In this document: positions 2,061 to 32,728 of the stretch, piece after piece
Layout: every line of letters begins with the position of its first letter
Numbering within the stretch: the stretch's first letter is position 1
Origin: Escherichia phage KEP4
Length of the DNA stretch: 64,000 nt
Reading direction: 5' to 3' (one strand)
Sequence record: PP047754
Notes under the pieces: model-generated
Database searches by the model: none
What the model was told of the DNA's origin: nothing
Seen by the model: the letters and a program-made list of their open reading frames with translations, nothing else
Position numbers and translations under genes: made by a program

Positions 2061-2570
2061 CTAGCCCAGAAACACTACTAAAGTCAAATTTGTGAGACTG
2101 GTCCGAGCATCCTGCAACATTTCACGGGCAGCGGCTAAACGTTTTACATCATGTAGAGTGTCAGAGAACACGATTATGTTAGCCTTATCGATCCTGGTCC
2201 CCATGAAATGGGTGATTGTCGTCGTGCTCTCTTTCTTGTCGACATCAGGGATAAGTAATTCTTCGCCCGTCTGAGGGTTGCGGGAAGGATAGAAGAATGC
2301 ATCACGTTCACGAGAAGTATGGAAGACGCCAAACACATATGCGTCGTTTTCGACCTGAAACTTTTTAGAAAGTAGTTTCTTCAGAGCGGCTGTATGTCCG
2401 GTCTGGCGGAGCATTCTGTAGTAGAGCATGTTGCCGGAGCAAATAGGGTCTATCACTCCCCTAATCTGACGTTCCTTTTGTATCTCATACGCATCTGCCA
2501 CAAGCTGCTGGATCATATCGACATGGGCATTCATGGAGATTTCTATTTTACGTTTGATCATAGATTGCAT
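2061..2570 (-). CDS. hypothetical protein
   Basis: 169-aa ORF in the minus-strand early gene array. Confidence 0.55.
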   Translation of the reverse strand: MQSMIKRKIEISMNAHVDMIQQLVADAYEIQKERQIRGVIDPICSGNMLYYRMLRQTGHTAALKKLLSKKFQVENDAYVFGVFHTSRERDAFFYPSRNPQTGEELLIPDVDKKESTTTITHFMGTRIDKANIIVFSDTLHDVKRLAAAREMLQDARTSLTNLTLVVFLG

Positions 2571-27227: not shown

Positions 27228-27746
27228 TCAAATACTAGTCATATAGAGTGGGACAACCTGCTCAGCGATCAACACGACCTCGGTAATGGTAAAGTCACCA
27301 CCATAAGAGTACAGTTTCATTTGCGCTCCGTTGGTCGCCAGGTTCCCATCCTTGTCAACGCTGAAGAATGTAATGAAAGACAAAGTGTCCGGCGGCGGTA
27401 CGCTAGCATCACGACTTCTTGATAACTGGTTCCCCACAGAACCCACAAAATCTAATATCATAGTTCTATTAGAAGTAGACCCAGACCATGATCCGACAAT
27501 ATTAACCTTCACCGGAAGAATAGAATCATAGGGAAACGCATGAAATTTGTGATCTGATAATTTAAAAAACGGGGCTAAACCAGTAGGAGAAGAAGGGTTC
27601 GGAGTCTTCCCATCCAACACAGTTAATAAATCTATTCCAGTTGCCCCAGAAGTTAGCAGTTGTGACAATCCAGAAAATCTGACTTCTGTTTTAATGCGGT
27701 GGGTCTGAAGCATATTCCCCAAATAGGGAGATGTCAAAATAGCCAT
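27228..27746 (-). CDS. hypothetical protein
   Basis: 172-aa ORF. Confidence 0.5.
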   Translation of the reverse strand: MAILTSPYLGNMLQTHRIKTEVRFSGLSQLLTSGATGIDLLTVLDGKTPNPSSPTGLAPFFKLSDHKFHAFPYDSILPVKVNIVGSWSGSTSNRTMILDFVGSVGNQLSRSRDASVPPPDTLSFITFFSVDKDGNLATNGAQMKLYSYGGDFTITEVVLIAEQVVPLYMTSI

Positions 27747-27755
27747 ATCTCCCCC

Positions 27756-27989
27756 TTAAGAAACGATAACTGTCGCATCAGAATTAATTGCCTTAACCCA
27801 ACCCACCGTCGGCGGGGTTAAAACGACCATATTTCCTTGATATATGATATGCGCGTTGTTACCCGTTGGAGCGCTGGGGCTATCACACAGATACACAGAA
27901 CCGTGAGTCACTTGAAGAGTTTTCAAAGATGTTCCGTCTGAGACTTGTGTCCATGTACTTGCGTTTGGTATGATCTTAGCGGTTGCCAT
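27756..27989 (-). CDS. hypothetical small protein
   Basis: 77-aa ORF. Confidence 0.4.
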   Translation of the reverse strand: MATAKIIPNASTWTQVSDGTSLKTLQVTHGSVYLCDSPSAPTGNNAHIIYQGNMVVLTPPTVGWVKAINSDATVIVS

Positions 27990-28034
27990 AATAGACCTCC
28001 TTTACAAGTCAGATCTATTTATTATAGACAAAAA

Positions 28035-28060
28035 GAAGCCCGATCTTCCTGATCGGGCTA
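28035..28060 (-). terminator. rho-independent terminator (minus strand) at the exit of the tRNA island
   Basis: AGCCCGATC-aggaa-GATCGGGCT hairpin followed on the minus strand by TCTTTTTGTC. Confidence 0.5.
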
Positions 28061-28119
28061 TGGTTAAACCATCGTGGGGATGGAAAGACTACTCACAGCA
28101 ATTTCTAGTATTAGGCGTT

Positions 28120-28150
28120 TGGGAGAGTGCGTCGGGAATCGAACCCGAAA
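28120..28150 (-). ncRNA. tRNA-like 3-prime fragment (T-arm plus acceptor strand); 5-prime half not found
   Basis: Reverse complement reads TCGGG-TTCGATT-CCCGA-CGCACTC-T-CCCA, a perfect T-arm, but no complementary acceptor strand or anticodon stem was found nearby. Confidence 0.25.
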
Positions 28151-28283
28151 TCGTCAGGACGTTGAAAGCTATTTGCATTTCACTTGCATATCCTGCGACT
28201 TTCTTAACTTCCTTAACCCCAGATTGTTATGAAGTCGGCATGCACACCTTCTTCATCTTCAGGAAGTCACACTCATTATTCTG

Positions 28284-28370
28284 ATTGCTTCAACTGGATT
28301 CGAACCAGTGACCTCAGGCACCTTGTTCTCTCGAAACTTTCCTGCGCTCTACCACTCGAGCTATGAAGCA
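28284..28370 (-). pseudogene. tRNA-like element without an anticodon stem (probable pseudo-tRNA)
   Basis: Reverse complement has a 7-bp acceptor stem (TGCTTCA/TGAAGCA), canonical D-arm GCTC-GAGTGGTA-GAGC and T-arm ACTGG-TTCGAAT-CCAGT, but a sliding 5-bp/7-nt/5-bp scan of the 35-nt middle segment finds no anticodon stem. Confidence 0.35.
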
Positions 28371-28373
28371 ATT

Positions 28374-28462
28374 TGGCGGAAGGTGAAGGATTCGAACCTT
28401 CGGGGGCTAAAAGCCCCACTCGATTAGCAGTCGAGTCCCTTAAACCTCTCGGGCAACCTTCC
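28374..28462 (-). tRNA. tRNA-Ser (anticodon GCT), type II with long variable arm, CCA encoded
   Basis: Reverse complement folds as GGAAGGT/ACCTTCC acceptor, anticodon stem CTCGA/TCGAG with loop CTGCTAA, variable arm GGGGCTTTTAGCCCCC, T-arm GAAGG-TTCGAAT-CCTTC, discriminator G plus CCA. Confidence 0.8.
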
Positions 28463-29002
28463 AATTTGGAGCGGGAGAGCAGTCAGCTACTGGCCAACCC
28501 CTATGGCTCCCGCGAAATTAGGACGGGCTTCACACCCGATTGTGCATTTGATCTGCCGTAGCCCAACTCCCCGCGCTTATCAGCGCCGATTGGTTAACTG
28601 GCACCAGTGCCTTCTGGTTCGATCTCCTGGAACTTTACAGGCTTCGTGCCCGACCATTTCTGGAAGTTGGGGCATCGTTTCCGATGTGGAGTCACCCCAT
28701 TTTATACACAGCTGGCTGCAACGCTTACTGTGTTTGGTCTACCACCACGTGCTGGGCCACGCTTGAGGACATCGGCCATCCTTCCTCAGCTAATCCACGC
28801 GGTGGTAGATTTTGTATCAGAGTGTCCGGTGTAGCTTTCCGTGAGGTGCGCACTACTGTAGCCTCTACACTCTGAATTTGGTGGGCGTTACTTTCGTCGG
28901 GTTCGGATTCCGTTCGGCTATTGGACGTCGCTCGAGAGAACTTGTCGTTCGCGTACTTCGTGCTTACTTGCTTTCGTTTCACACCCATTGTTTGTCGTCG
29001 GG

Positions 29003-29023
29003 CGGGGGATTCAAACCCCAATC
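29003..29023 (-). ncRNA. tRNA-like T-arm fragment
   Basis: GGGG-TTTGAAT-CCCC motif in reverse complement followed by an acceptor-like strand; no matching 5-prime half. Confidence 0.2.
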
Positions 29024-29130
29024 TTTAGTTTGTGTTTCTTCAAAGCTATCATATGTTCACTTTGAATACTAGACTCCCCTGGACATCAAAACAGAATCTC
29101 TATTCCATCCTGCAAGACCCGACATAATCC

Positions 29131-29206
29131 TGGCGACGATGGCAGGACTTGAACCTGCGACATACGGTTTAACAGACCGCCGTTCTACCGACTGAACTAC
29201 ATCGTC
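29131..29206 (-). tRNA. tRNA-Asn (anticodon GTT), CCA encoded
   Basis: 76-nt cloverleaf: acceptor GACGATG/CATCGTC, D-arm GTTC-AGTCGGTA-GAAC, anticodon stem GCGGT/ACCGT with loop CTGTTAA, T-arm GCAGG-TTCAAGT-CCTGC, discriminator G plus CCA. Confidence 0.85.
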
Positions 29207-29619
29207 ATTTATTCTTACTTTCGTAAACATTCTTTATTTTGCATGAAGACCCAGGGCAGGATCATAACGATCGTAAGTTTTTGGATGAGACCCGTTCTTG
29301 ATGCTCACCATCCGACCTTCCCAACTAGCGCGAATTCTGTTGGAAATCACCACCCAAATATTCTTCATAATATAGAACCCTTCAACTATGTTTATTCGCT
29401 TCGATCGCCCTTAATTGGGCGTCCGCGTCAGCTTTGGTGTCATGTGTCCCAAGAACTTTAGTCTTGGTGTGGTCAAGGACAACCCACTTATCGCCTCGCT
29501 TTTCAACAAACTCAACAATCTCTTTGTTGTCAGTAGCGAGGCCATCCCACTCAGTAAGAAACTCACCGAACGTTTTCATCATACTCACCAATTGTTTATT
29601 GAACAACTGGTTTATTTAG

Positions 29620-29695
29620 TGGTGACCCTGGCTGGACTTGAACCAGCGACCAATCGATTATGAGTCGACTGCTCTAACCACTGAGCTACGGGGCC
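29620..29695 (-). tRNA. tRNA-Met (anticodon CAT; elongator Met or lysidine-Ile type), CCA encoded
   Basis: 76-nt cloverleaf: acceptor GGCCCCG/CAGGGTC (one mismatch, one GU), D-arm GCTC-AGTGGTTA-GAGC, anticodon stem GTCGA/TCGAT with loop CTCATAA, T-arm GCTGG-TTCAAGT-CCAGC. Confidence 0.8.
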
Positions 29696-29758
29696 AAAAT
29701 TTGGCGGGGTCTGAGGATTTTCACCTCACCTGCTGGATTGGCCTCCAGCTGTTCTCTA

Positions 29759-29784
29759 TGAGGATTCGATGCGCGCGCATCGAA
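29759..29784. repeat. perfect 26-nt palindrome
   Basis: GGATTCGATGCGC|GCGCATCGAATCC is an exact reverse-complement palindrome. Confidence 0.6.
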
Positions 29785-30016
29785 TCCCTTAAACTATCGC
29801 CCCATAATTTATTGTGTGACCAACCAAGGTCTCTCAACCCTTTATCCCGTTTGTGCATGATCAGTTCATGCATGCCTGTTTGTGCGCCTCGCGGCAACGC
29901 GCTTCTGTGGGTCTTTGGCTTGCACCGTAGCCTCACCACAGGCGTTTATTTTTCCAGGGCTTTCCACTTGCAAGTCTTGACCATACAGGGATACGGGCTT
30001 GCAAGATCGGGTTGGA

Positions 30017-30096
30017 CACAACTTTGATGGCTCTGGTACTAAAGATCCCGCGTCACCCATAGACATGGTTTATAAAATCCAGAGCCATCAAAGTTG
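30017..30096. repeat. long inverted repeat (about 18-bp perfect stem, about 42-nt loop)
   Basis: CAACTTTGATGGCTCTGG at 30018-30035 is the exact reverse complement of CCAGAGCCATCAAAGTTG at 30078-30095. Confidence 0.55.
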
Positions 30097-30475
30097 CAAC
30101 CAAATGTTACAACTCGCATTCAATGTCTTCGTCACACCGAATACTTGTCCTCTATCGCTCGGACCAAACGAGGCTGGCCGAAGAAACAAAACACCACTCA
30201 ACACTAGAGCAAGGATGTGGTTGATGGCCACGATGTAATGTCTCTATCGAAGAGTGATCACACTTGTCAGATGATCACTGTTTTGCGAACTCGAGAATAC
30301 TGCGCCTGTCTCGGGTTTCCCCTTAGTTCGGCCTCTCATTGTTCGTCCGGTCAGGGAGCTACCCTTGATGACCAGCTTATATTGAGATCTTCGCCAGCGC
30401 CCACCAGTGTCTAGAATGTGTAGGCGTCGAGGTCTGCAAGGCATTGCCCTATTTCATACAACGCTCTCTCAAGTA

Positions 30476-30608
30476 CGCAAATCGAAGTTCTCTGGGCTTA
30501 ACAGGTTCGACCCAACATGTTGTATATCGCCTAACTTACTCATGGGACGGCCACTTCTGTGTACAGACCTTGAGGGTTAAAAGATATACCCAGAGAACTT
30601 CGATTTGC
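30476..30608. repeat. long inverted repeat (20-bp perfect stem, about 93-nt loop)
   Basis: CGCAAATCGAAGTTCTCTGG (30476-30495) and CCAGAGAACTTCGATTTGCG (30589-30608) are exact reverse complements; a second hairpin TGTGGGGG-CAAA-CCCCCCACA follows at 30610-30630. Confidence 0.55.
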
Positions 30609-30894
30609 GTTGTGGGGGCAAACCCCCCACACGGCTACTTCTTTAACAGGGATTGCTAGCCCTGGGGATTCCACTGTTTAAGGCTTTATCCCATAACGCC
30701 CGAGGCGCGTTTTAACTTATTGAAGCTTGCATAACTGCAAACTGATGCGCTGTGAGACACATCTTTGAGGGCACTCAGTGTACAACAGGCTCCGATATTT
30801 CATAGGGCATTACTGCCTCGGATTTAAGTTGCCTTTCTCCTGAAACTCCATACAGTCTCGCGTCTGACGCGGAATGCCCTCAAAGATATGGAGC

Positions 30895-30925
30895 CGTTTT
30901 AGGGAGTCGAACCCAAATGCTTGGC
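30895..30925 (-). ncRNA. tRNA-like T-arm fragment
   Basis: GGG-TTCGACT-CCC in reverse complement; no acceptor complement found. Confidence 0.2.
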
Positions 30926-31016
30926 CAGCGCTGACCTTACATCCCATCTGACTTAGGCAACCCACCTCTGCCTACTCAGGAGCTTATCCCCTTTGGACAG
31001 TCAGATATAACGGCGT

Positions 31017-31045
31017 TGGGATTGGAGGAAGGACTCGAACCTTCT
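31017..31045 (-). ncRNA. tRNA-like 3-prime fragment with encoded CCA
   Basis: Reverse complement GAAGG-TTCGAGT-CCTTC-CTCCAAT-C-CCA; no 5-prime acceptor strand (ATTGGAG) nearby. Confidence 0.25.
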
Positions 31046-31300
31046 CATGTACGCTCCTGATTTCTCAGAAGTAGTCTGCTCCCATCGACCTATTAAGTAC
31101 ACGCTCCGCTCATTGTCGACGGGAGATTATTAATCACACCCTCCCGTCTATTTTAGTGCGCCGAATTTGGTGATGAGGAATCGGAAGACCTCACTGGTGT
31201 ATGGCTATTAAGCTACTGCCAGGAACGTGTTATCATTAGCGATTATTTTTGTGGTCAGTTTCTAAAAACCCGCAAAGTCACGCACAACGAAAACGAAAAC

Positions 31301-31365
31301 CTGTTTGAGTCCTAAACCTACCTGTCTTGGTCTCACATCGCTATGAGTGGCCAGGACTCAAACAG
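31301..31365. repeat. inverted repeat (13-bp perfect stem, about 39-nt loop)
   Basis: CTGTTTGAGTCCT (31301-31313) is the exact reverse complement of AGGACTCAAACAG (31353-31365). Confidence 0.5.
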
Positions 31366-31427
31366 CTTGCCGTTCAGTGAGTTAACTATACTTTGTAACC
31401 CGTTATTGATAAAACCTTTTATTTTTG

Positions 31428-31500
31428 TTGGCGAGGGTGCGGAATCGAACCACACTTCTGAGCGCTACCCCGTGTCATCAATGCACCACCTCACCATCGA
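31428..31500 (-). ncRNA. truncated tRNA-like element
   Basis: Acceptor-like GGTGAGG/CCTCGCC pairing and T-arm TGTGG-TTCGATT-CCGCA, but the body is about 8 nt too short for D plus anticodon arms. Confidence 0.25.
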
Positions 31501-32158
31501 TTTGCCGGAACTTACGCATCCGGCCTCGTCCTGTCGGTGTTCTTCTGAATCCGGGAAGATCAGCAGGAACTATGAATCAAGTTAATTCAACCAACAGGAA
31601 TCCTCTTGTTGCCCTTTGACGCAACATTATGAACCCTCTATGAAGACTCATAATGTTGTCGGCGTGATGGAGATTAGCGCCCCCGACCTCCCCTTATATG
31701 TTGGTGTCGACTTGCCAACGGGGTGCTCTCGTTTTTCTGAGCTAATCACGCTACAACAGGGAGTTTCGTTCTCCGACGGTCAAGTGCGTCCACTGACACC
31801 AGCGAGGTGGCTATTACGCCTCTATTCACACAAGCCCCTGAGACTAGGGGTTAACTGGTTTTGGGCTGCAAACCCGACTCCCACTGTGTTATTTCCCTCA
31901 TGTTTAATACTTTACCGCAGCCCAGCTAATTTGAAAAGTCCTCTCCCCTTTGAGCTACACTGCCCACAGCAGTGCGGACGAACCTTCACTCAAAACCGGA
32001 TGCGCCGAAGTGGGCAACTGTTTACCGGACTGATCGGGTAGACCCAGGAGAGAGCAGGTAATCCCGATCAGGAGGATGAGGAGTAACATCATGTAAAACA
32101 TAGTGTTCCCTCCCTTCCATGCAACTAACTTTACTACAATTATTTATTGAATAAAGCG

Positions 32159-32728
32159 TTATTTTAACACTTCTAACTTCACAACACGACGCAGAAGGTA
32201 AACATATTCGCCAGCAGCTTCATGCGTCATATAATGGGTAGAAGGTGTGGAATGATTGTTCTGGGTTTCTTTTAATCCAACACGTTCTGCCCAACCATTA
32301 ATAGAGTTCCCATAGAAACCGATAATCGCGCCAAAATAAATGCGCTGGCTTTCTGGCTCTAAAACATAGTTGACAGTGAAGCAAATATCAGAACGAATAG
32401 ACTCCAGTTTCATACCAACACGACCTTCGGAGAATTCGTTACGAACATATAAATGACGGAAACGATCGCGCCGCGCTTGTGATGATTCTTCCAATTCTTG
32501 TCGGAGTGAAGAAGTTACGTCAATATTAAATGAAAATGTTGGATTCTGTAAATCGGAACGGGCCAACTCTAACGCAGATTCAACAACGCGACGGAAATTG
32601 ATACTTTTACCTGTCAGGCGTTTCACTTCATCTGTGATTGTTCCAAAAGGGATTTTCGTGGCGCGTTCCCCTTCGTATTTTGCCAATAAAGGAATAATGT
32701 GTTTCATGATTGCTGTGTTAATGTGCAT
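32159..32728 (-). CDS. hypothetical protein
   Basis: 189-aa ORF transcribed divergently from the structural module. Confidence 0.55.
   Translation of the reverse strand: MHINTAIMKHIIPLLAKYEGERATKIPFGTITDEVKRLTGKSINFRRVVESALELARSDLQNPTFSFNIDVTSSLRQELEESSQARRDRFRHLYVRNEFSEGRVGMKLESIRSDICFTVNYVLEPESQRIYFGAIIGFYGNSINGWAERVGLKETQNNHSTPSTHYMTHEAAGEYVYLLRRVVKLEVLK

Follow-up and report, generated by a model that had tools for sequence, protein, structure and literature searches.

A stretch of phage DNA that combines intact tRNAs, apparent tRNA fragments and dense inverted repeats raises the question of whether the sequences between the tRNAs are debris or genes for structured RNAs. Such a stretch lies at about 28100-31500 in the window (the whole 64,000-nucleotide sequence analysed), which is from a Kuttervirus (Ackermannviridae), a Salmonella/E. 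coli phage, and is 99.8% identical to pSK20/SFP10. The first-pass annotation had offered three readings, namely recently duplicated or mobile sequence, a large processed non-coding RNA, and decoy tRNA-like RNAs. The second comes nearest, with the addition that the region's stem-closed and tRNA-shaped modules are arrayed in one orientation, from promoter-like sites to a terminator.

Organization of the island

Three of the RNAs in the island are ordinary tRNAs. At least seven more have the shape of a tRNA, and long, near-perfect stems close six or more further modules. These features are co-oriented on one strand, with promoter-like sites upstream and a single strong terminator at the end, and local folding resolves the region into back-to-back closed modules. 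The minus strand from ~32140 to 28037 may thus be read as a polycistronic stable-RNA operon with an intrinsic terminator at its end; this reading, taken jointly with the docking model below, is held with moderate confidence. The features that bound the island, and its protein genes, are as follows.

32139-32167 (-): sigma-70-like promoter candidate at the upstream edge, TTAAAA-17-AATAAT, 9/12 matches (consensus match only)
31955-32101 (-): small hydrophobic ORF, 48 aa, with RBS; phrog_8415 (E 2.5e-33), orf219 in CBA120
29234-29606 (-): two small protein genes between tRNA-Met and tRNA-Asn; phrog_3684 and phrog_6110, annotated in relatives
28037-28059 (-): intrinsic terminator closing the island, a 9-bp GC-rich stem followed by a U-run

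It had been stated that 3.4 kb of this region holds no credible ORF, but PHROG-family ORFs are present within the island: those at 29385-29594 and 29237-29368 match with E about 1e-27. The ORF at 31955-32101 is probably a real gene heading the transcription unit. The coding-free stretches are about 28037-29233 and 29607-31954. The higher GC content that had been claimed is borne out, with a modest difference (0.47-0.50 vs about 0.44).

Judging from their shapes, the tRNA-like ends and the 13-25-bp stems would punctuate the transcript for processing and stabilisation. The tRNA-like ends would be cut by RNase P or RNase Z, while for the stems RNase III action or exonuclease protection is proposed; processing at both would release a set of small stable RNAs.

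tRNAs and tRNA-shaped modules

The three intact minus-strand tRNAs are confirmed; ARAGORN at its default setting calls exactly these three, and they score 56-76 bits in Rfam.

28374-28462 (-): tRNA-Ser(GCU)
29131-29206 (-): tRNA-Asn(GUU)
29620-29695 (-): tRNA-Met(CAU)

A scan for T-arm hairpins (G-C closing pair and at least 4/5 stem pairs) found nine between 28148 and 31454, all on the minus strand and seven of them with 5/5 stem pairs. Only five matches, all with 4/5 stem pairs, occur on both strands of the remaining ~60 kb. Six of the nine lie outside the canonical tRNAs, in agreement with the earlier count of at least five extra loci. These loci had also been said to have no foldable 5' half. 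Every element, however, has an acceptor partner (6-7 of 7 pairs), and the elements fold as acceptor-closed multi-branch RNAs. Since the 5' acceptor strands are present, the supposed half tRNAs are, on the predicted folds, tRNA-shaped RNAs in which other structure stands where the anticodon arm would be. Nor does software at default settings fold them as ordinary tRNAs that had been misparsed; only when the ARAGORN thresholds are relaxed do some of them receive weak calls, as tRNAs or as tRNAs with an intron.

31661-31751 (-): cloverleaf-shaped tRNA-like RNA (predicted fold), acceptor GCGUGAU/AUCACGC, D-arm, two non-canonical arms
31430-31497 (-): mini tRNA-like RNA, 68 nt, acceptor GGUGAGG/CCUCGCC, canonical T-arm, without anticodon arm or encoded CCA
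31013-31085 (-): mini tRNA-like RNA with encoded C-CCA, acceptor AUGGGAG/CUCCAAU, mismatch at 3:70
30889-31023 (-): tRNA-like RNA, ~125-135 nt, encoded U-CCA, acceptor GCCGUU/AACGGC, T-arm, two long inserted arms
28994-29123 (-): tRNA-like RNA, 127 nt, acceptor GUCGGGU/GCCCGAC, T-arm UUUGAAU
28285-28370 (-): tRNA-shaped RNA, 22-nt loop (AAAGUUUCGAGAGAACAAGGUG) in place of the anticodon loop
28125-28274 (-): tRNA-like RNA, 150 nt, acceptor GAGUGUG/CGCACUC, one arm displaying loop AAGGUGUGCAUGCC

The element at 28285-28370 is a fourth match to the Rfam tRNA model (48.7 bits) beside the three intact tRNAs, but with its anticodon loop replaced; HK633 and ZC2 present the same loop motif on another scaffold. 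Acceptor stems and T-arms, the parts of a tRNA that are read by tRNA-processing enzymes, are kept across the tRNA-shaped modules, and the interiors differ. The cloverleaf RNA is kept in six Ackermannviridae loci, where its inner arm covaries (CCCCGUUGG.. vs UCCCGGCGG..). The acceptor and T stems of the 68-nt mini covary in T751 (GGCGAAG/CCUUCGCC), and this mini is missing as a clean indel in L133 and L134; the mini at 31013-31085 is missing in L247. The RNA at 30889-31023 is 95-98% identical between genera, with flanks at 79-86%. The 150-nt RNA has a fold z-score of -3.2 and stems that covary in T751. Its loop AAGGUGUGCAUGCC resembles ssrA nt 37-51.

Stem-closed modules

The dense inverted repeats are also confirmed, the coordinates given earlier being off by a few bases. 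Long inverted repeats are ~15-fold denser in the island than elsewhere in the window: its 4.3 kb hold seven pairs, as against five of at least 13 nt in the other 60 kb. The paired arms and the modules that they close are listed below.

30012-30036/30079-30103: inverted repeat, 25 nt, 88%
30475-30496/30589-30610: inverted repeat, 22 nt, 100%
30758-30781/30867-30890: inverted repeat
31292-31313/31353-31374: inverted repeat
28738-28751/28796-28809: inverted repeat
31622-31632/31648-31658: inverted repeat
29762-29787 (-): perfect palindromic hairpin, 26 nt (inverted-repeat search, local fold)
31528-31599 (-): stem-closed hairpin module, 11-pair closing stem, local fold -24.5 kcal/mol
31292-31374 (-): long hairpin I4 (inverted repeat), abutting the 5' end of the tmRNA-like RNA described below
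30757-30890 (-): stem-closed module I3 (inverted repeat, relatives' alignment), fold -56.6 kcal/mol
30474-30610 (-): stem-closed module I2, 22-bp perfect closing stem
30005-30110 (-): stem-closed module I1, 19-25-bp closing stem
28811-28883 (-): stem-closed module common to an unrelated ~72-kb phage contig, L171 (85.5% identity over 76 nt)
28738-28809 (-): pseudoknot-type module, invariant core (GAUUAGCUGAGGAAGGAUGGCCGAUGUCCUCAAGCGUGGCCCAG) inside a 14-bp closing stem

The repeats are conserved in relatives. Hairpin I4 is kept in six of them with partly compensatory changes, the I2 stem is maintained by compensatory changes in Taipeivirus-type relatives, and the I1 stem shows such changes in L133 and L129. 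The closing stem at 28738-28809 is fully rewritten, yet still complementary, in L190 and L135; its core is also found in L176 and L136. Closing stems are conserved in this way around invariant cores in four other genera. The relatives in which compensatory changes keep the stems belong to other genera, Taipeivirus, Agtrevirus and Limestonevirus among them. The perfect stems therefore did not arise by recent duplication, and the earlier reading of them as recently duplicated or mobile sequence is refuted. Whole modules nonetheless act like exchangeable cassettes.

A tmRNA-like message module

The key module of the island, which the first-pass annotation did not mention, is a ~190-nt RNA on the minus strand (31302-31113), hereafter the tag RNA. 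From its sequence it looks like the message half of a tmRNA joined to an arm able to base-pair with host tmRNA. It has an A/U-rich linker, a GCN resume codon, a 10-codon frame resembling a degradation tag, stop codons in a hairpin and two pseudoknots; it is without a tRNA-like domain.

31385-31412 (-): promoter-like site upstream of the RNA, TTATCA-16-TATAGT
31250-31302 (-): 5' arm, colinear antisense to host ssrA nt ~54-107, with the GUUUUCGU seed twice
31205-31240 (-): tag reading frame, GCU AAU GAU AAC ACG UUC CUG GCA GUA GCU UAA UAG (ANDNTFLAVA and two stops), preceded by linker AAAAAUAAUC
31194-31222 (-): helix-5-like hairpin with the stop codons, covariation CUGG/CCAG vs CUGA/UCAG
31161-31193 (-): pseudoknot A, stem UGAGG/CCUCA, loop CCGA pairing with downstream UCGG
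31119-31160 (-): pseudoknot B, S1 CGCACU/GGUGUG, S2 CGGGAG/CUCCCG, loop AUUAAUAA

The tag frame is exactly 10 codons long in 73/73 unique homologues, with synonymous variation and no indels. The consensus is AN[DE]x..L[AM][AV]A; acidic residues fall at positions 3-4, position 6 is frequently aromatic, and the frame ends in Ala/Val-Ala and an in-frame stop. The same scan also picked up genuine permuted phage tmRNAs in IMG/VR contigs, and these have exactly the resume context of the tag RNA, AUAAAU followed by GCAAACGA; the resume region aligns to Rfam RF04321. ARAGORN calls the tag at a relaxed threshold ('tmRNAp*') and makes no tmRNA call at 31302-31113 by default; the Rfam tmRNA models give 20-25 bits, below the gathering threshold of 47.

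The structure is likewise maintained. Paired cells amount to 93%, vs 37-43% in slid controls, and 14 of 22 pairs show compensatory changes, a value reached by 0/500 shuffles. In pseudoknot A such changes affect 4/4 loop pairs and 3/5 stem pairs. Siphovirus and Felixounavirus homologues have TTGACA-17-TAGATT or TATAGT at the place equivalent to the promoter-like site, and the strand of the tag RNA is fixed by invariant G-U pairs together with these near-consensus promoters.

Members of the family are spread over unrelated phages (Felixounavirus, N4-like, HK620, lambdoid, P1-like and siphoviruses), with at least 465 records in all, and are essentially never annotated; a literature search found no description of the family. 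Other phages have a similar modular layout, in which a promoter is followed by the tag RNA, a hairpin, a tRNA-like scaffold with variable cargo and a terminator. Oversize CCA-ending tRNA-like RNAs also occur in N4-like-size and Felixounavirus contigs.

Complementarity to host tmRNA

The stretch of host tmRNA that the ~50-nt 5' arm complements extends from pseudoknot 1 (its 3' half) up to and including tag codon 6; aligned with the ssrA reverse complement, the arm shows colinear similarity (alignment A4). Every subfamily has exact 8-11-nt complements to ssrA nt 96-107, and lineages keep different pieces of the antisense. In most subfamilies tested the predicted duplexes at ssrA 54-107 reach -42 to -49 kcal/mol, as compared with -19 to -25 for the message region of the tag RNA itself, and the local-alignment scores are matched by 0-5 of 1000 dinucleotide shuffles. 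Against this, two divergent subfamilies score weakly (L176, 50/1000; L172, 15/1000), and RNAduplex energy does not single out the arm within the GC-rich island (z -2.5). Moreover, because the family members are homologous, conservation of the arm does not amount to many independent tests of complementarity. Among the Enterobacterales hosts sampled, a set that does not include Salmonella ssrA, ssrA 54-107 is nearly invariant and therefore gives little power for a test of host-phage covariation. Part of the arm can also pair with the linker of the tag RNA itself, and the L176 type shows one apparent compensatory change there (alignment by eye), so that an intramolecular role is possible.

The most likely interpretation, held jointly with the operon reading above, is that the tag RNA docks on host tmRNA and then replaces or blocks the host tag template. 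The tag RNA would anneal to host tmRNA and bury the host resume codon in the duplex, while its own linker and resume codon would sit about 10 nt from the duplex junction. Stalled ribosomes would still be rescued by the host Ala-tmRNA-SmpB, but the tag added would be the one that the phage encodes; at minimum, host tagging would be blocked. Against this model, we know of no case in which a template supplied in trans has been shown to work in trans-translation.

Alternative interpretations

The same complementarity to ssrA 54-107 would equally serve a pure inhibitor, whose arm only blocks host tmRNA or triggers its cleavage (e.g. by RNase III on the ~45-bp imperfect duplex), the tag being an untranslated leftover or an RNA-level mimic. 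A precedent for phage interference with trans-translation comes from mycobacteriophage DS6A, whose TLD-only tmRNA is reported to act as an inhibitor of host tmRNA (PMC4131195). A leftover, however, would not keep 10 codons, an in-frame stop and a residue pattern in 73 sequences while the nucleotides change, nor would it preserve the resume-codon context of working tmRNAs, and this possibility is considered unlikely. Very unlikely is a self-contained split phage tmRNA, independent of host tmRNA, in which a charged mini (31497-31430 or 31085-31013) would act as the tRNA-like domain of the tag RNA. The order of tRNA-like piece and coding piece is that of permuted tmRNA genes, the minis are sized like known TLD-only tmRNAs (~65 nt, PMC11915505), and EC6-type Felixounaviruses carry a tRNA-like RNA with G3.U70, A73 and CCA, its T-arm 93 nt downstream of the tag RNA. 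The relaxed 'tmRNAp*' call also points this way, but the TLD that it assigns has a 4-bp acceptor and a 9-nt T-loop. G3.U70 is absent from both minis, its place being taken by U3.G70 or C3-G70 in one and by a G3.A70 mismatch in the other. Both are also lost in close relatives that keep the tag RNA, a partner of this kind is lacking in most phages that carry the tag RNA, and there is no complementarity to hold the two pieces together.

Two further explanations reach beyond the tag RNA. The tRNA-shaped modules may be decoys or competitors for host factors that recognise the acceptor/T-arm half, such as tRNA-targeting defence nucleases, CCA-modifying toxins or processing enzymes, which is compatible with any reading of the tag RNA. 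The selective retention of acceptor stems and T-arms with loss of anticodon arms, the CCA encoded by two modules, the gain, loss and exchange of cassettes typical of counter-defence loci, and the oversize tRNA-like RNAs of other phages all suit such a role; the same features are equally explained as processing or stability scaffolds for inserted cargo, and the decoy role is thought rather unlikely. The mosaicism of the region between genera, and the insertion of HNH homing endonuclease genes here in CBA120 and SS3/SS9, would fit a recombination hotspot in which tRNA genes decay and the debris of mobile elements collects, with function limited to the three tRNAs. Random decay, however, would not spare acceptor stems and T-arms, keep 14-22-bp stems by compensatory change or retain invariant module cores common to unrelated phages, nor would a covarying double pseudoknot survive it in 465 or more phage genomes. 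This last explanation is already disfavoured, and its probability is put very low.

Comparison with known systems

GOLLD and ROOL are large phage non-coding RNAs adjoining tRNAs. Like them, the island is a large, ornate, ORF-free RNA locus beside phage tRNA genes, but it is an array of small independent modules rather than one large fold, and an Rfam scan gave no GOLLD or ROOL match at E≤10. T4 species 1 and 2 (rnaD, rnaC) are stable non-tRNA RNAs of the T4 tRNA cluster, co-transcribed and co-processed with the tRNAs; compared by description only, both loci place such RNAs beside phage tRNAs, two in T4 and more than 12 modules here. In the MHV68 tRNA-miRNAs (TMER), MALAT1 mascRNA and engineered tRNA-scaffold expression, a tRNA-like fold processes or stabilises non-tRNA cargo. 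As in the engineered scaffold, the cargo of the island sits where the anticodon arm would be; in contrast to all three, the island belongs to a bacterial virus, and some phage scaffolds swap the D/T-loop contact for Watson-Crick kissing loops.

AgvB/AsxR of EHEC prophages and DicF are prophage anti-sRNAs or phage base-pairing sRNAs. The tag RNA would likewise be a phage small RNA acting on a host RNA by pairing, as proposed here from sequence, and several members are autonomous, 'moron'-like units with their own promoter. The proposed target, however, is tmRNA rather than an sRNA or mRNA, the complementarity extends over ~45 nt rather than a short seed, and the tag RNA adds a translatable-looking template.

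With tmRNA itself (ssrA; standard and circularly permuted two-piece forms; RF00023, RF04321) the tag RNA shares the A/U-rich linker, the GCN resume codon, a short frame with a hydrophobic Ala-rich end, the helix 5 stops and the downstream pseudoknots. It is without the tRNA-like domain, pseudoknot 1 and the 3' CCA, and it has an antisense arm to host tmRNA, which no known tmRNA has. Complete phage-encoded tmRNAs exist, e.g. in OM43 phage Melnitz. TLD-only ('CDS-less') tmRNAs are found in mycobacteriophage DS6A, jakobid mitochondria and some plastids (PMC4131195, PMC11915505). These too are partial tmRNAs, one of them phage-borne, and the minis (65-70 nt) are similar to them in size and shape. 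The tag RNA is, however, their mirror image: they keep the tRNA half, and it keeps the message half.

The tag RNA and its reading frame

In distant BLAST searches with the ORF-free part of the island, only about 31126-31294 gave matches, and these lie in unannotated intergenic DNA of very different phages. Five aligned homologues have a near-consensus sigma-70 promoter (TTGACA-17-TAGATT or TATAGT) just upstream, and a frame GCN AAY GAN ... UAA that resembles the tag of a tmRNA. The corresponding module, referred to as the tag RNA, comprises:

31302-31113, minus strand, tag RNA (tmRNA-like RNA)
31302-31250, minus strand, 5' arm
31240-31205, minus strand, tag frame

The tag is ANDNTFLAVA in the window, compared with ANDENYALAA in E. 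coli. Two pattern scans of IMG/VR and an nhmmer profile gave 95 matches (73 unique sequences), and in all 73 the frame has 10 codons and no indels. Among the other tags are ANEEMYLAVA, ANDDVVLMAA, ANDEQFLAVA, ANDDLMLMAA, ANDNVFLAVA, ANDTEFKAAA, and ANDSEMRMVA. The components of the mRNA-like domain of tmRNA are present, i.e., the linker, a GCN resume codon, a short frame with an Ala-rich hydrophobic end, and stops. The resume context, AUAAAU followed by GCAAACGA, is identical in this family and in the genuine permuted two-piece phage tmRNAs recovered by the same scan. The latter carry tRNA-like parts (GGGGCUG...UUCGAC and ...CUCCACCA), both of which are absent from the tag RNA family. Genuine circularly permuted tmRNA genes occur in L152, L166, L208, L235 (L-numbers denote the homologous loci and contigs compared), and other IMG/VR contigs, with tags that include ANDEKFALAA, ANDEVFALAA, and ANDSEYLVAA.

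None of the Rfam tmRNA models reaches its gathering threshold on the tag RNA: the permuted-tmRNA model RF04321 aligns the resume region with 20-25 bits (threshold 47), RF01850 scores 14-19 bits (threshold 84), and RF00023 10-12 bits (threshold 47). ARAGORN makes no tmRNA call by default; with a relaxed threshold it calls the tag, but pairs it with a non-credible tRNA domain.

Structure of the tag RNA

Four elements were specified in an alignment of 32 sequences (A3), and their pairs were then counted.

Structural elements of the tag RNA in alignment A3
Helix-5-like hairpin: encloses the stop codons
Pseudoknot A: hairpin loop CCGA pairs with a downstream UCGG
Pseudoknot B, stem 1: CGCACU/GGUGUG
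Pseudoknot B, stem 2: freely varying, GCCC/GGGC, CGGGAG/CUCCCG, CCCUGA/UCAGGG, CCCAC/GUGGG

The loop of pseudoknot A also varies (CCAG/CUGG, CCAA/UUGG, UCGA/UCGA, and CUAG/CUAG). In A3, 93% of the cells are paired, versus 37-43% in slid controls; double changes are seen in 14 of the 22 pairs, and the observed values are attained in none of 500 shuffles. That the minus strand is the sense strand follows from two invariant G-U pairs, from the promoters, and from co-orientation with tRNA operons. The plus strand as sense was ruled out by the same pairs and promoters and by its frame, which is not tag-like.

The helix-5-like hairpin and the two 3' pseudoknots have covariation support. Pseudoknot 1 was not found, and the antisense arm described below stands in its place. 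Nor does the module have the tRNA-like domain (TLD) of a tmRNA, as it lacks a flanking acceptor strand. The neighbouring mini tRNA-likes in the window (31497-31430 and 31085-31013, both minus strand) are without G3.U70. A tRNA-like partner as a general rule was rejected, since a G3.U70/ACCA element was seen, among all the homologues, in EC6-type Felixounaviruses alone. In EC6 (L004 ~2345-2430, minus strand) it is a 78-nt tRNA-like RNA not called by ARAGORN, with the acceptor CGGGGCG/CGCCUCG (G3.U70), discriminator A, an encoded CCA, and a T-arm 93 nt downstream of the tag RNA. Judged from these features, it might serve as a partner that accepts alanine, though solely in EC6-type Felixounaviruses.

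Complementarity of the 5' arm to host tmRNA

At the 5' end a single motif is invariant, (UA)GUUUUCGU(C), and it is exactly complementary to nt 96-107 of ssrA, the tmRNA gene, of E. coli K-12, which are the host tag codons 3-6 (GAC GAA AAC UAC). Colinearity with the ssrA reverse complement extends through the remainder of the arm, as seen in alignment A4 of GTTTTCGTCGTTTGCGACTATTTTTTGCGGCTTTTTACGAGGCC (ssrA reverse complement) with GTTTTCGTAAGCGAC-----TTTGCGG-GTTTTTAGAAACTGACC (phage). With RNAduplex, the best duplex falls on ssrA 54-107 in most of the 16 subfamilies (-42 to -49 kcal/mol in the main types); in the three exceptions (L172, L238, and L136) the mapping is partial or to another place. 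The arm against its own message region gives only -19 to -25. In local alignments, 0-5 of 1000 dinucleotide shuffles reach the score of the lambdoid, siphoviral, Kuttervirus, Felixounavirus, and L136 types, and the signal is weaker in two divergent subfamilies, L172 and L176. The complementarity to ssrA is extended, colinear, family-wide, and above background, the family members being homologous, so that conservation of the arm represents non-independent cases. Energy alone does not discriminate within the island, and an RNAduplex scan of every island window against tmRNA does not single out the arm in this GC-rich DNA.

Different types retain different parts of the complementarity. In Felix-type RNAs the segment CUAUUUUGC, which complements ssrA GCAAAAAAUAG, is retained; the lambdoid types have lost it and retain GCGGNCUUUUUA, complementary to ssrA UAAAAAGCCGC. 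The tag RNA's own linker can also pair with part of the arm. The A-N-D codons of the Kuttervirus RNA are GCU AAU GAU, synonymous with GCA AAC GAC of the host, and this choice makes its own message less complementary to its own arm. E. coli, Pantoea, and a third enterobacterium have nearly the same ssrA 54-107, which leaves little power for detecting co-variation between host and phage; one suggestive compensatory position was seen at low power on this near-invariant target (Erwinia phage Snitter versus Pantoea ssrA). GCGAC in the arm had been considered a remnant of the tmRNA D-loop, and this was dropped once the arm was recognised as the ssrA reverse complement.

Comparison of the island with 16S, 23S, and 5S rRNA, RNase P RNA, 6S RNA, and tRNA-Glu of E. 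coli gave only marginal 13-14-nt matches. These include a perfect 14-nt antisense match of 28709-28722 (minus strand) to 23S rRNA 1761-1774 (E 0.07) and a 13-nt antisense match of 30792-30804 (minus strand) to 6S RNA 40-52 (E 0.29), both marginal and possibly due to chance. Two adjacent tRNA-shaped RNAs have loops, AAGGUGUGCAUGCC and GAACAAGGUGCCUG, at 28235-28245 (in 28125-28274, minus strand) and 28315-28347 (in 28285-28370, minus strand), that are sense-like to ssrA nt ~33-51 (CCCAAGGUGCAUGCCGA), a segment immediately 5' of the antisense arm's target. The loop at 28235-28245 is kept in Taipeivirus T751 while its stem covaries.

At the level of sequence comparison, a conserved, structured RNA is established that has a tmRNA-type tag template, no tRNA-like domain, and an arm complementary to ssrA 54-107.

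Distribution and companion elements

With a 222-nt query, the tag RNA family was found in at least 465 of 50,697 phage records. The carriers comprise Ackermannviridae, Felixounavirus, N4-like IME11/EC1-UPM, HK620, Erwinia Drexlerviridae, Vibrio pYD38-A, and Aeromonas phages. The copies are differently placed: inside a tRNA cluster in Felixounavirus; between PR'/qut/tR' and the holin gene in lambdoid HK633; in the C1-controlled tRNA-ban operon in P1-like P7 and SJ46 (tag ANDDLMMAAA); and as a promoter-to-terminator unit of its own, antisense to tail genes, in siphoviruses of Klebsiella, Escherichia, Salmonella, and Cronobacter. Annotation is lacking nearly everywhere, including all of the 154 (of 5426) complete E. 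coli genomes with prophage copies. A pattern scan of species-representative bacterial genomes gave a single match, in Pseudocitrobacter. Therefore, the family is essentially phage- or prophage-borne.

In other phages the tag RNA is followed by junction repeats, GGUAAGAGCAUU ... AGUGCUCUUUCC, forming a hairpin with a variable insert, and then by a tRNA-like scaffold. The scaffold has either true D/T arms or a Watson-Crick kissing-loop version of them, and carries 35-160 nt of variable cargo at the anticodon position. One cargo, CAGG[..GAACAAGGUG]CCUG, recurs in the window as the 22-nt loop of its tRNA-OTHER (28285-28370, minus strand).

Junction repeats of the form CACAACAGGUAAGAGCAUU ... AGUGCUCUUUCCNGUUGUG (stem of ~18 bp) flank 40-85-nt variable inserts between modules, some with T-arms, in lambdoid, siphoviral, and P1-like versions; they are present outside the window, in L003, L091, L096, L118, L250, and others, and resemble 5'/3' splice-site consensus sequences, possibly by coincidence. 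In the kissing-loop scaffold (L005 ~2275-2370 and L003 ~2300-2400, both minus strand; also L091, L096, and L118) the D-loop/T-loop contact is swapped for 5-6 Watson-Crick pairs (GCUGAU / AUCAGC), and the acceptor stem is closed by 8-9 bp. Downstream of the scaffold in Klebsiella phage ZC2 (L005 2199-2257, minus strand) lies a tRNA-Arg(UCU)-like element without a pairing acceptor stem (39 bits with the Rfam tRNA model, positions 8-63).

The surrounding island

Over 28000-32200 the window shares 99.8-99.9% identity with the Salmonella phages vB_SenAc-pSK20 and SFP10; with Escherichia phage CBA120 (Kuttervirus, Ackermannviridae) the figure is 97%. The relatives' annotation of the island holds tRNAs, one 'tRNA-OTHER', and a few hypothetical proteins, and nothing else. 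All the island features discussed here are on the minus strand. The three intact tRNAs of the first-pass annotation are exactly those called by ARAGORN, in agreement with Rfam, and only they have a canonical cloverleaf with a 7-nt anticodon loop:

28374-28462, minus strand, tRNA-Ser (ARAGORN, Rfam)
29131-29206, minus strand, tRNA-Asn (ARAGORN, Rfam)
29620-29695, minus strand, tRNA-Met (ARAGORN, Rfam)

The further T-arm loci reported with them are also borne out. A scan for T-arms (G-C closing pair, at least 4/5 stem pairs) gave nine hairpins in the island (28148-31454, all minus strand), seven with 5/5 pairs, against five matches on both strands of the rest of the 64 kb, each with 4/5. The tRNA-OTHER, whose anticodon loop is replaced by a 22-nt loop, scores 48.7 bits with the Rfam tRNA model under permissive settings, and the other six T-arm elements receive no tRNA call from default ARAGORN or Rfam. 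In its intron and relaxed modes ARAGORN calls tRNA-Pro (15-nt intron), tRNA-Ile (32-nt intron), and tRNA-Ala, Leu, and His; these were rejected as ordinary tRNAs because such introns are, to our knowledge, absent from bacterial tRNAs and the anticodon arms are not credible. With Rfam at E<=10, the interval 27500-32500 gave only tRNA and weak tmRNA matches; neither here nor at the gathering thresholds did GOLLD, ROOL, a group I intron, a Y-RNA-like RNA, or a ribozyme appear.

Two of the first-pass statements do not hold. The T-arm elements were described as half tRNAs lacking a 5' half; each has a 5' acceptor strand 62-150 nt upstream, and they fold as acceptor-closed, multi-branched RNAs. The region was also said to have no credible ORF; three small ORFs within or bordering it match PHROG families (E ~1e-27 to 2.5e-33). 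The 70-aa ORF at 29385-29594 (minus strand), between tRNA-Met and tRNA-Asn, matches phrog_3684 only at positions 118-186 of 262, and may represent, on its own, the C-terminal domain of a larger protein family. HNH homing endonuclease genes, absent from the window, lie beside tRNA-Met in CBA120 (L002 3220-3633) and SS3/SS9, an arrangement that would fit a recombination hotspot in the island.

The inverted repeats are real, the long ones being enriched ~15-fold, with the coordinates first assigned wrong by a few bases. Their perfection had been taken to suggest, as one of several readings, recently duplicated or mobile sequence. Orthologous segments of Taipeivirus T751, Agtrevirus SKML-39, Limestonevirus Ds5CZ, and five IMG/VR Ackermannviridae contigs show instead that the closing stems are maintained across genera via compensatory change. 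Around 28738-28809, the stem strands UCUACCACCGCGUG/CACGUGGUGGUAGA of the window correspond to UCUGGAACCCGGUU/AACCGGGUUCCAGA in L190 and L135, with an invariant 44-nt core; the stems of 30475-30610 (22 bp) and 30012-30103 (19-25 bp) are kept likewise. On this comparative evidence the long stems are judged structural rather than recently duplicated. Overall, the original observation is confirmed in part, and its interpretation has partial support.

The core of 28738-28809 (minus strand), GAUUAGCNGNGGAAGGNNGGCCGAUGNCC...GCGUGGCCCAG, is a probable pseudoknot within variable long stems. It is common to Ackermannviridae and unrelated ~54-72-kb phage contigs (L176 ~2100-2170; L136), and lies immediately upstream of the tag RNA in some contigs.

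Entire modules are gained or lost as clean cassettes among the relatives compared: the mini tRNA-like 31497-31430 is absent from L133 and L134, and 31085-31013 from L247. In Taipeivirus and other Ackermannviridae contigs, a CCA-ending tRNA-like of ~130 nt (31014-30884, minus strand) has 95-98% identity, against 79-86% in its flanks, which suggests recent horizontal exchange or very strong constraint. By local folding, closed modules tile the entire interval, which also contains candidate transcription signals:

32167-32139, minus strand, promoter-like site (consensus match)
31412-31385, minus strand, promoter-like site (consensus match)
28059-28037, minus strand, strong intrinsic terminator (sequence)

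From the kept stems, cassette modules, tiled folds, promoter-like sites, and terminator, 32140-28037 (minus strand) is read as one stable-RNA operon. The substrate shapes of RNase P, RNase Z, and RNase III are well established, and on that basis the tRNA-like ends and long stems would, by their shape, be signals for processing and stability. The tRNA-shaped and stem-closed neighbours of the tag RNA appear best explained as scaffolds for the processing and stability of other cargo RNAs; it is also possible that the tRNA-shaped modules are decoys for host factors that recognise tRNA.

Discussion

Trans-translation by tmRNA-SmpB is the main ribosome-rescue system of bacteria and influences phage growth. 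We know of no phage factor described as acting directly on tmRNA. The region is not an ordinary tRNA cluster: it holds a previously unannotated, widespread phage RNA family with tmRNA-like and anti-tmRNA features, within a natural tRNA-scaffold operon.

In the proposed mechanism, the 5' seed would pair with the single-stranded host tag codons and then zip via the linker into pseudoknot 1, which would anchor the RNA to host tmRNA through ~45 nt of pairing that spans pseudoknot 1, the linker, and tag codons 1-6. The phage linker (9-12 nt versus 11 nt in the host) and resume codon would emerge beside host helix 2, and the phage resume codon and 10-codon template would be substituted for those of the host. 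Host Ala-tmRNA-SmpB would then resume on the phage template, rescuing stalled ribosomes and adding a phage-specified tag. Alternatively, the RNA may purely inhibit tmRNA by pairing. Conservation of the tag at the amino-acid level points to its translation, which favours the template swap over pure inhibition, both being predictions. A joint reading, possible and in our judgement rather doubtful, is that the phage RNA turns host tmRNA into a hetero-bipartite tmRNA with a phage tag, and that the island is a natural tRNA-scaffold system for further effector RNAs, some perhaps addressing tmRNA (loops like ssrA nt 37-51).

If the RNA pairs with tmRNA, with or without supplying a replacement template, it would represent a new kind of host takeover, and a template supplied in trans to tmRNA would be the first case. 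The carriers include classic models (P1/P7, HK620, lambdoid phages, and Felix O1 relatives) as well as N4-like and Vi1-like therapeutic candidates, and the genomes of biocontrol and therapy phages gain one RNA gene and a dozen tRNA-shaped RNAs. The idea is open to direct test with existing phages and E. coli genetics.

The known forms of tmRNA are standard, intron-containing, permuted, and CDS-less (TLD-only), the last including that of mycobacteriophage DS6A, a reported inhibitor of host tmRNA (PMC4131195, PMC11915505). Complete phage tmRNAs are recorded in 402 of 18,146 phage genomes, many of the marine ones being two-piece (PMC9004378). Neither a TLD-less tmRNA-like RNA nor a phage RNA antisense to tmRNA was found in the full-text literature searched, an absence that is not in itself proof of novelty. 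The use of a tRNA-like fold as a scaffold for other RNAs does have a counterpart: the trick of the phage island is the one that was invented for recombinant RNA production.
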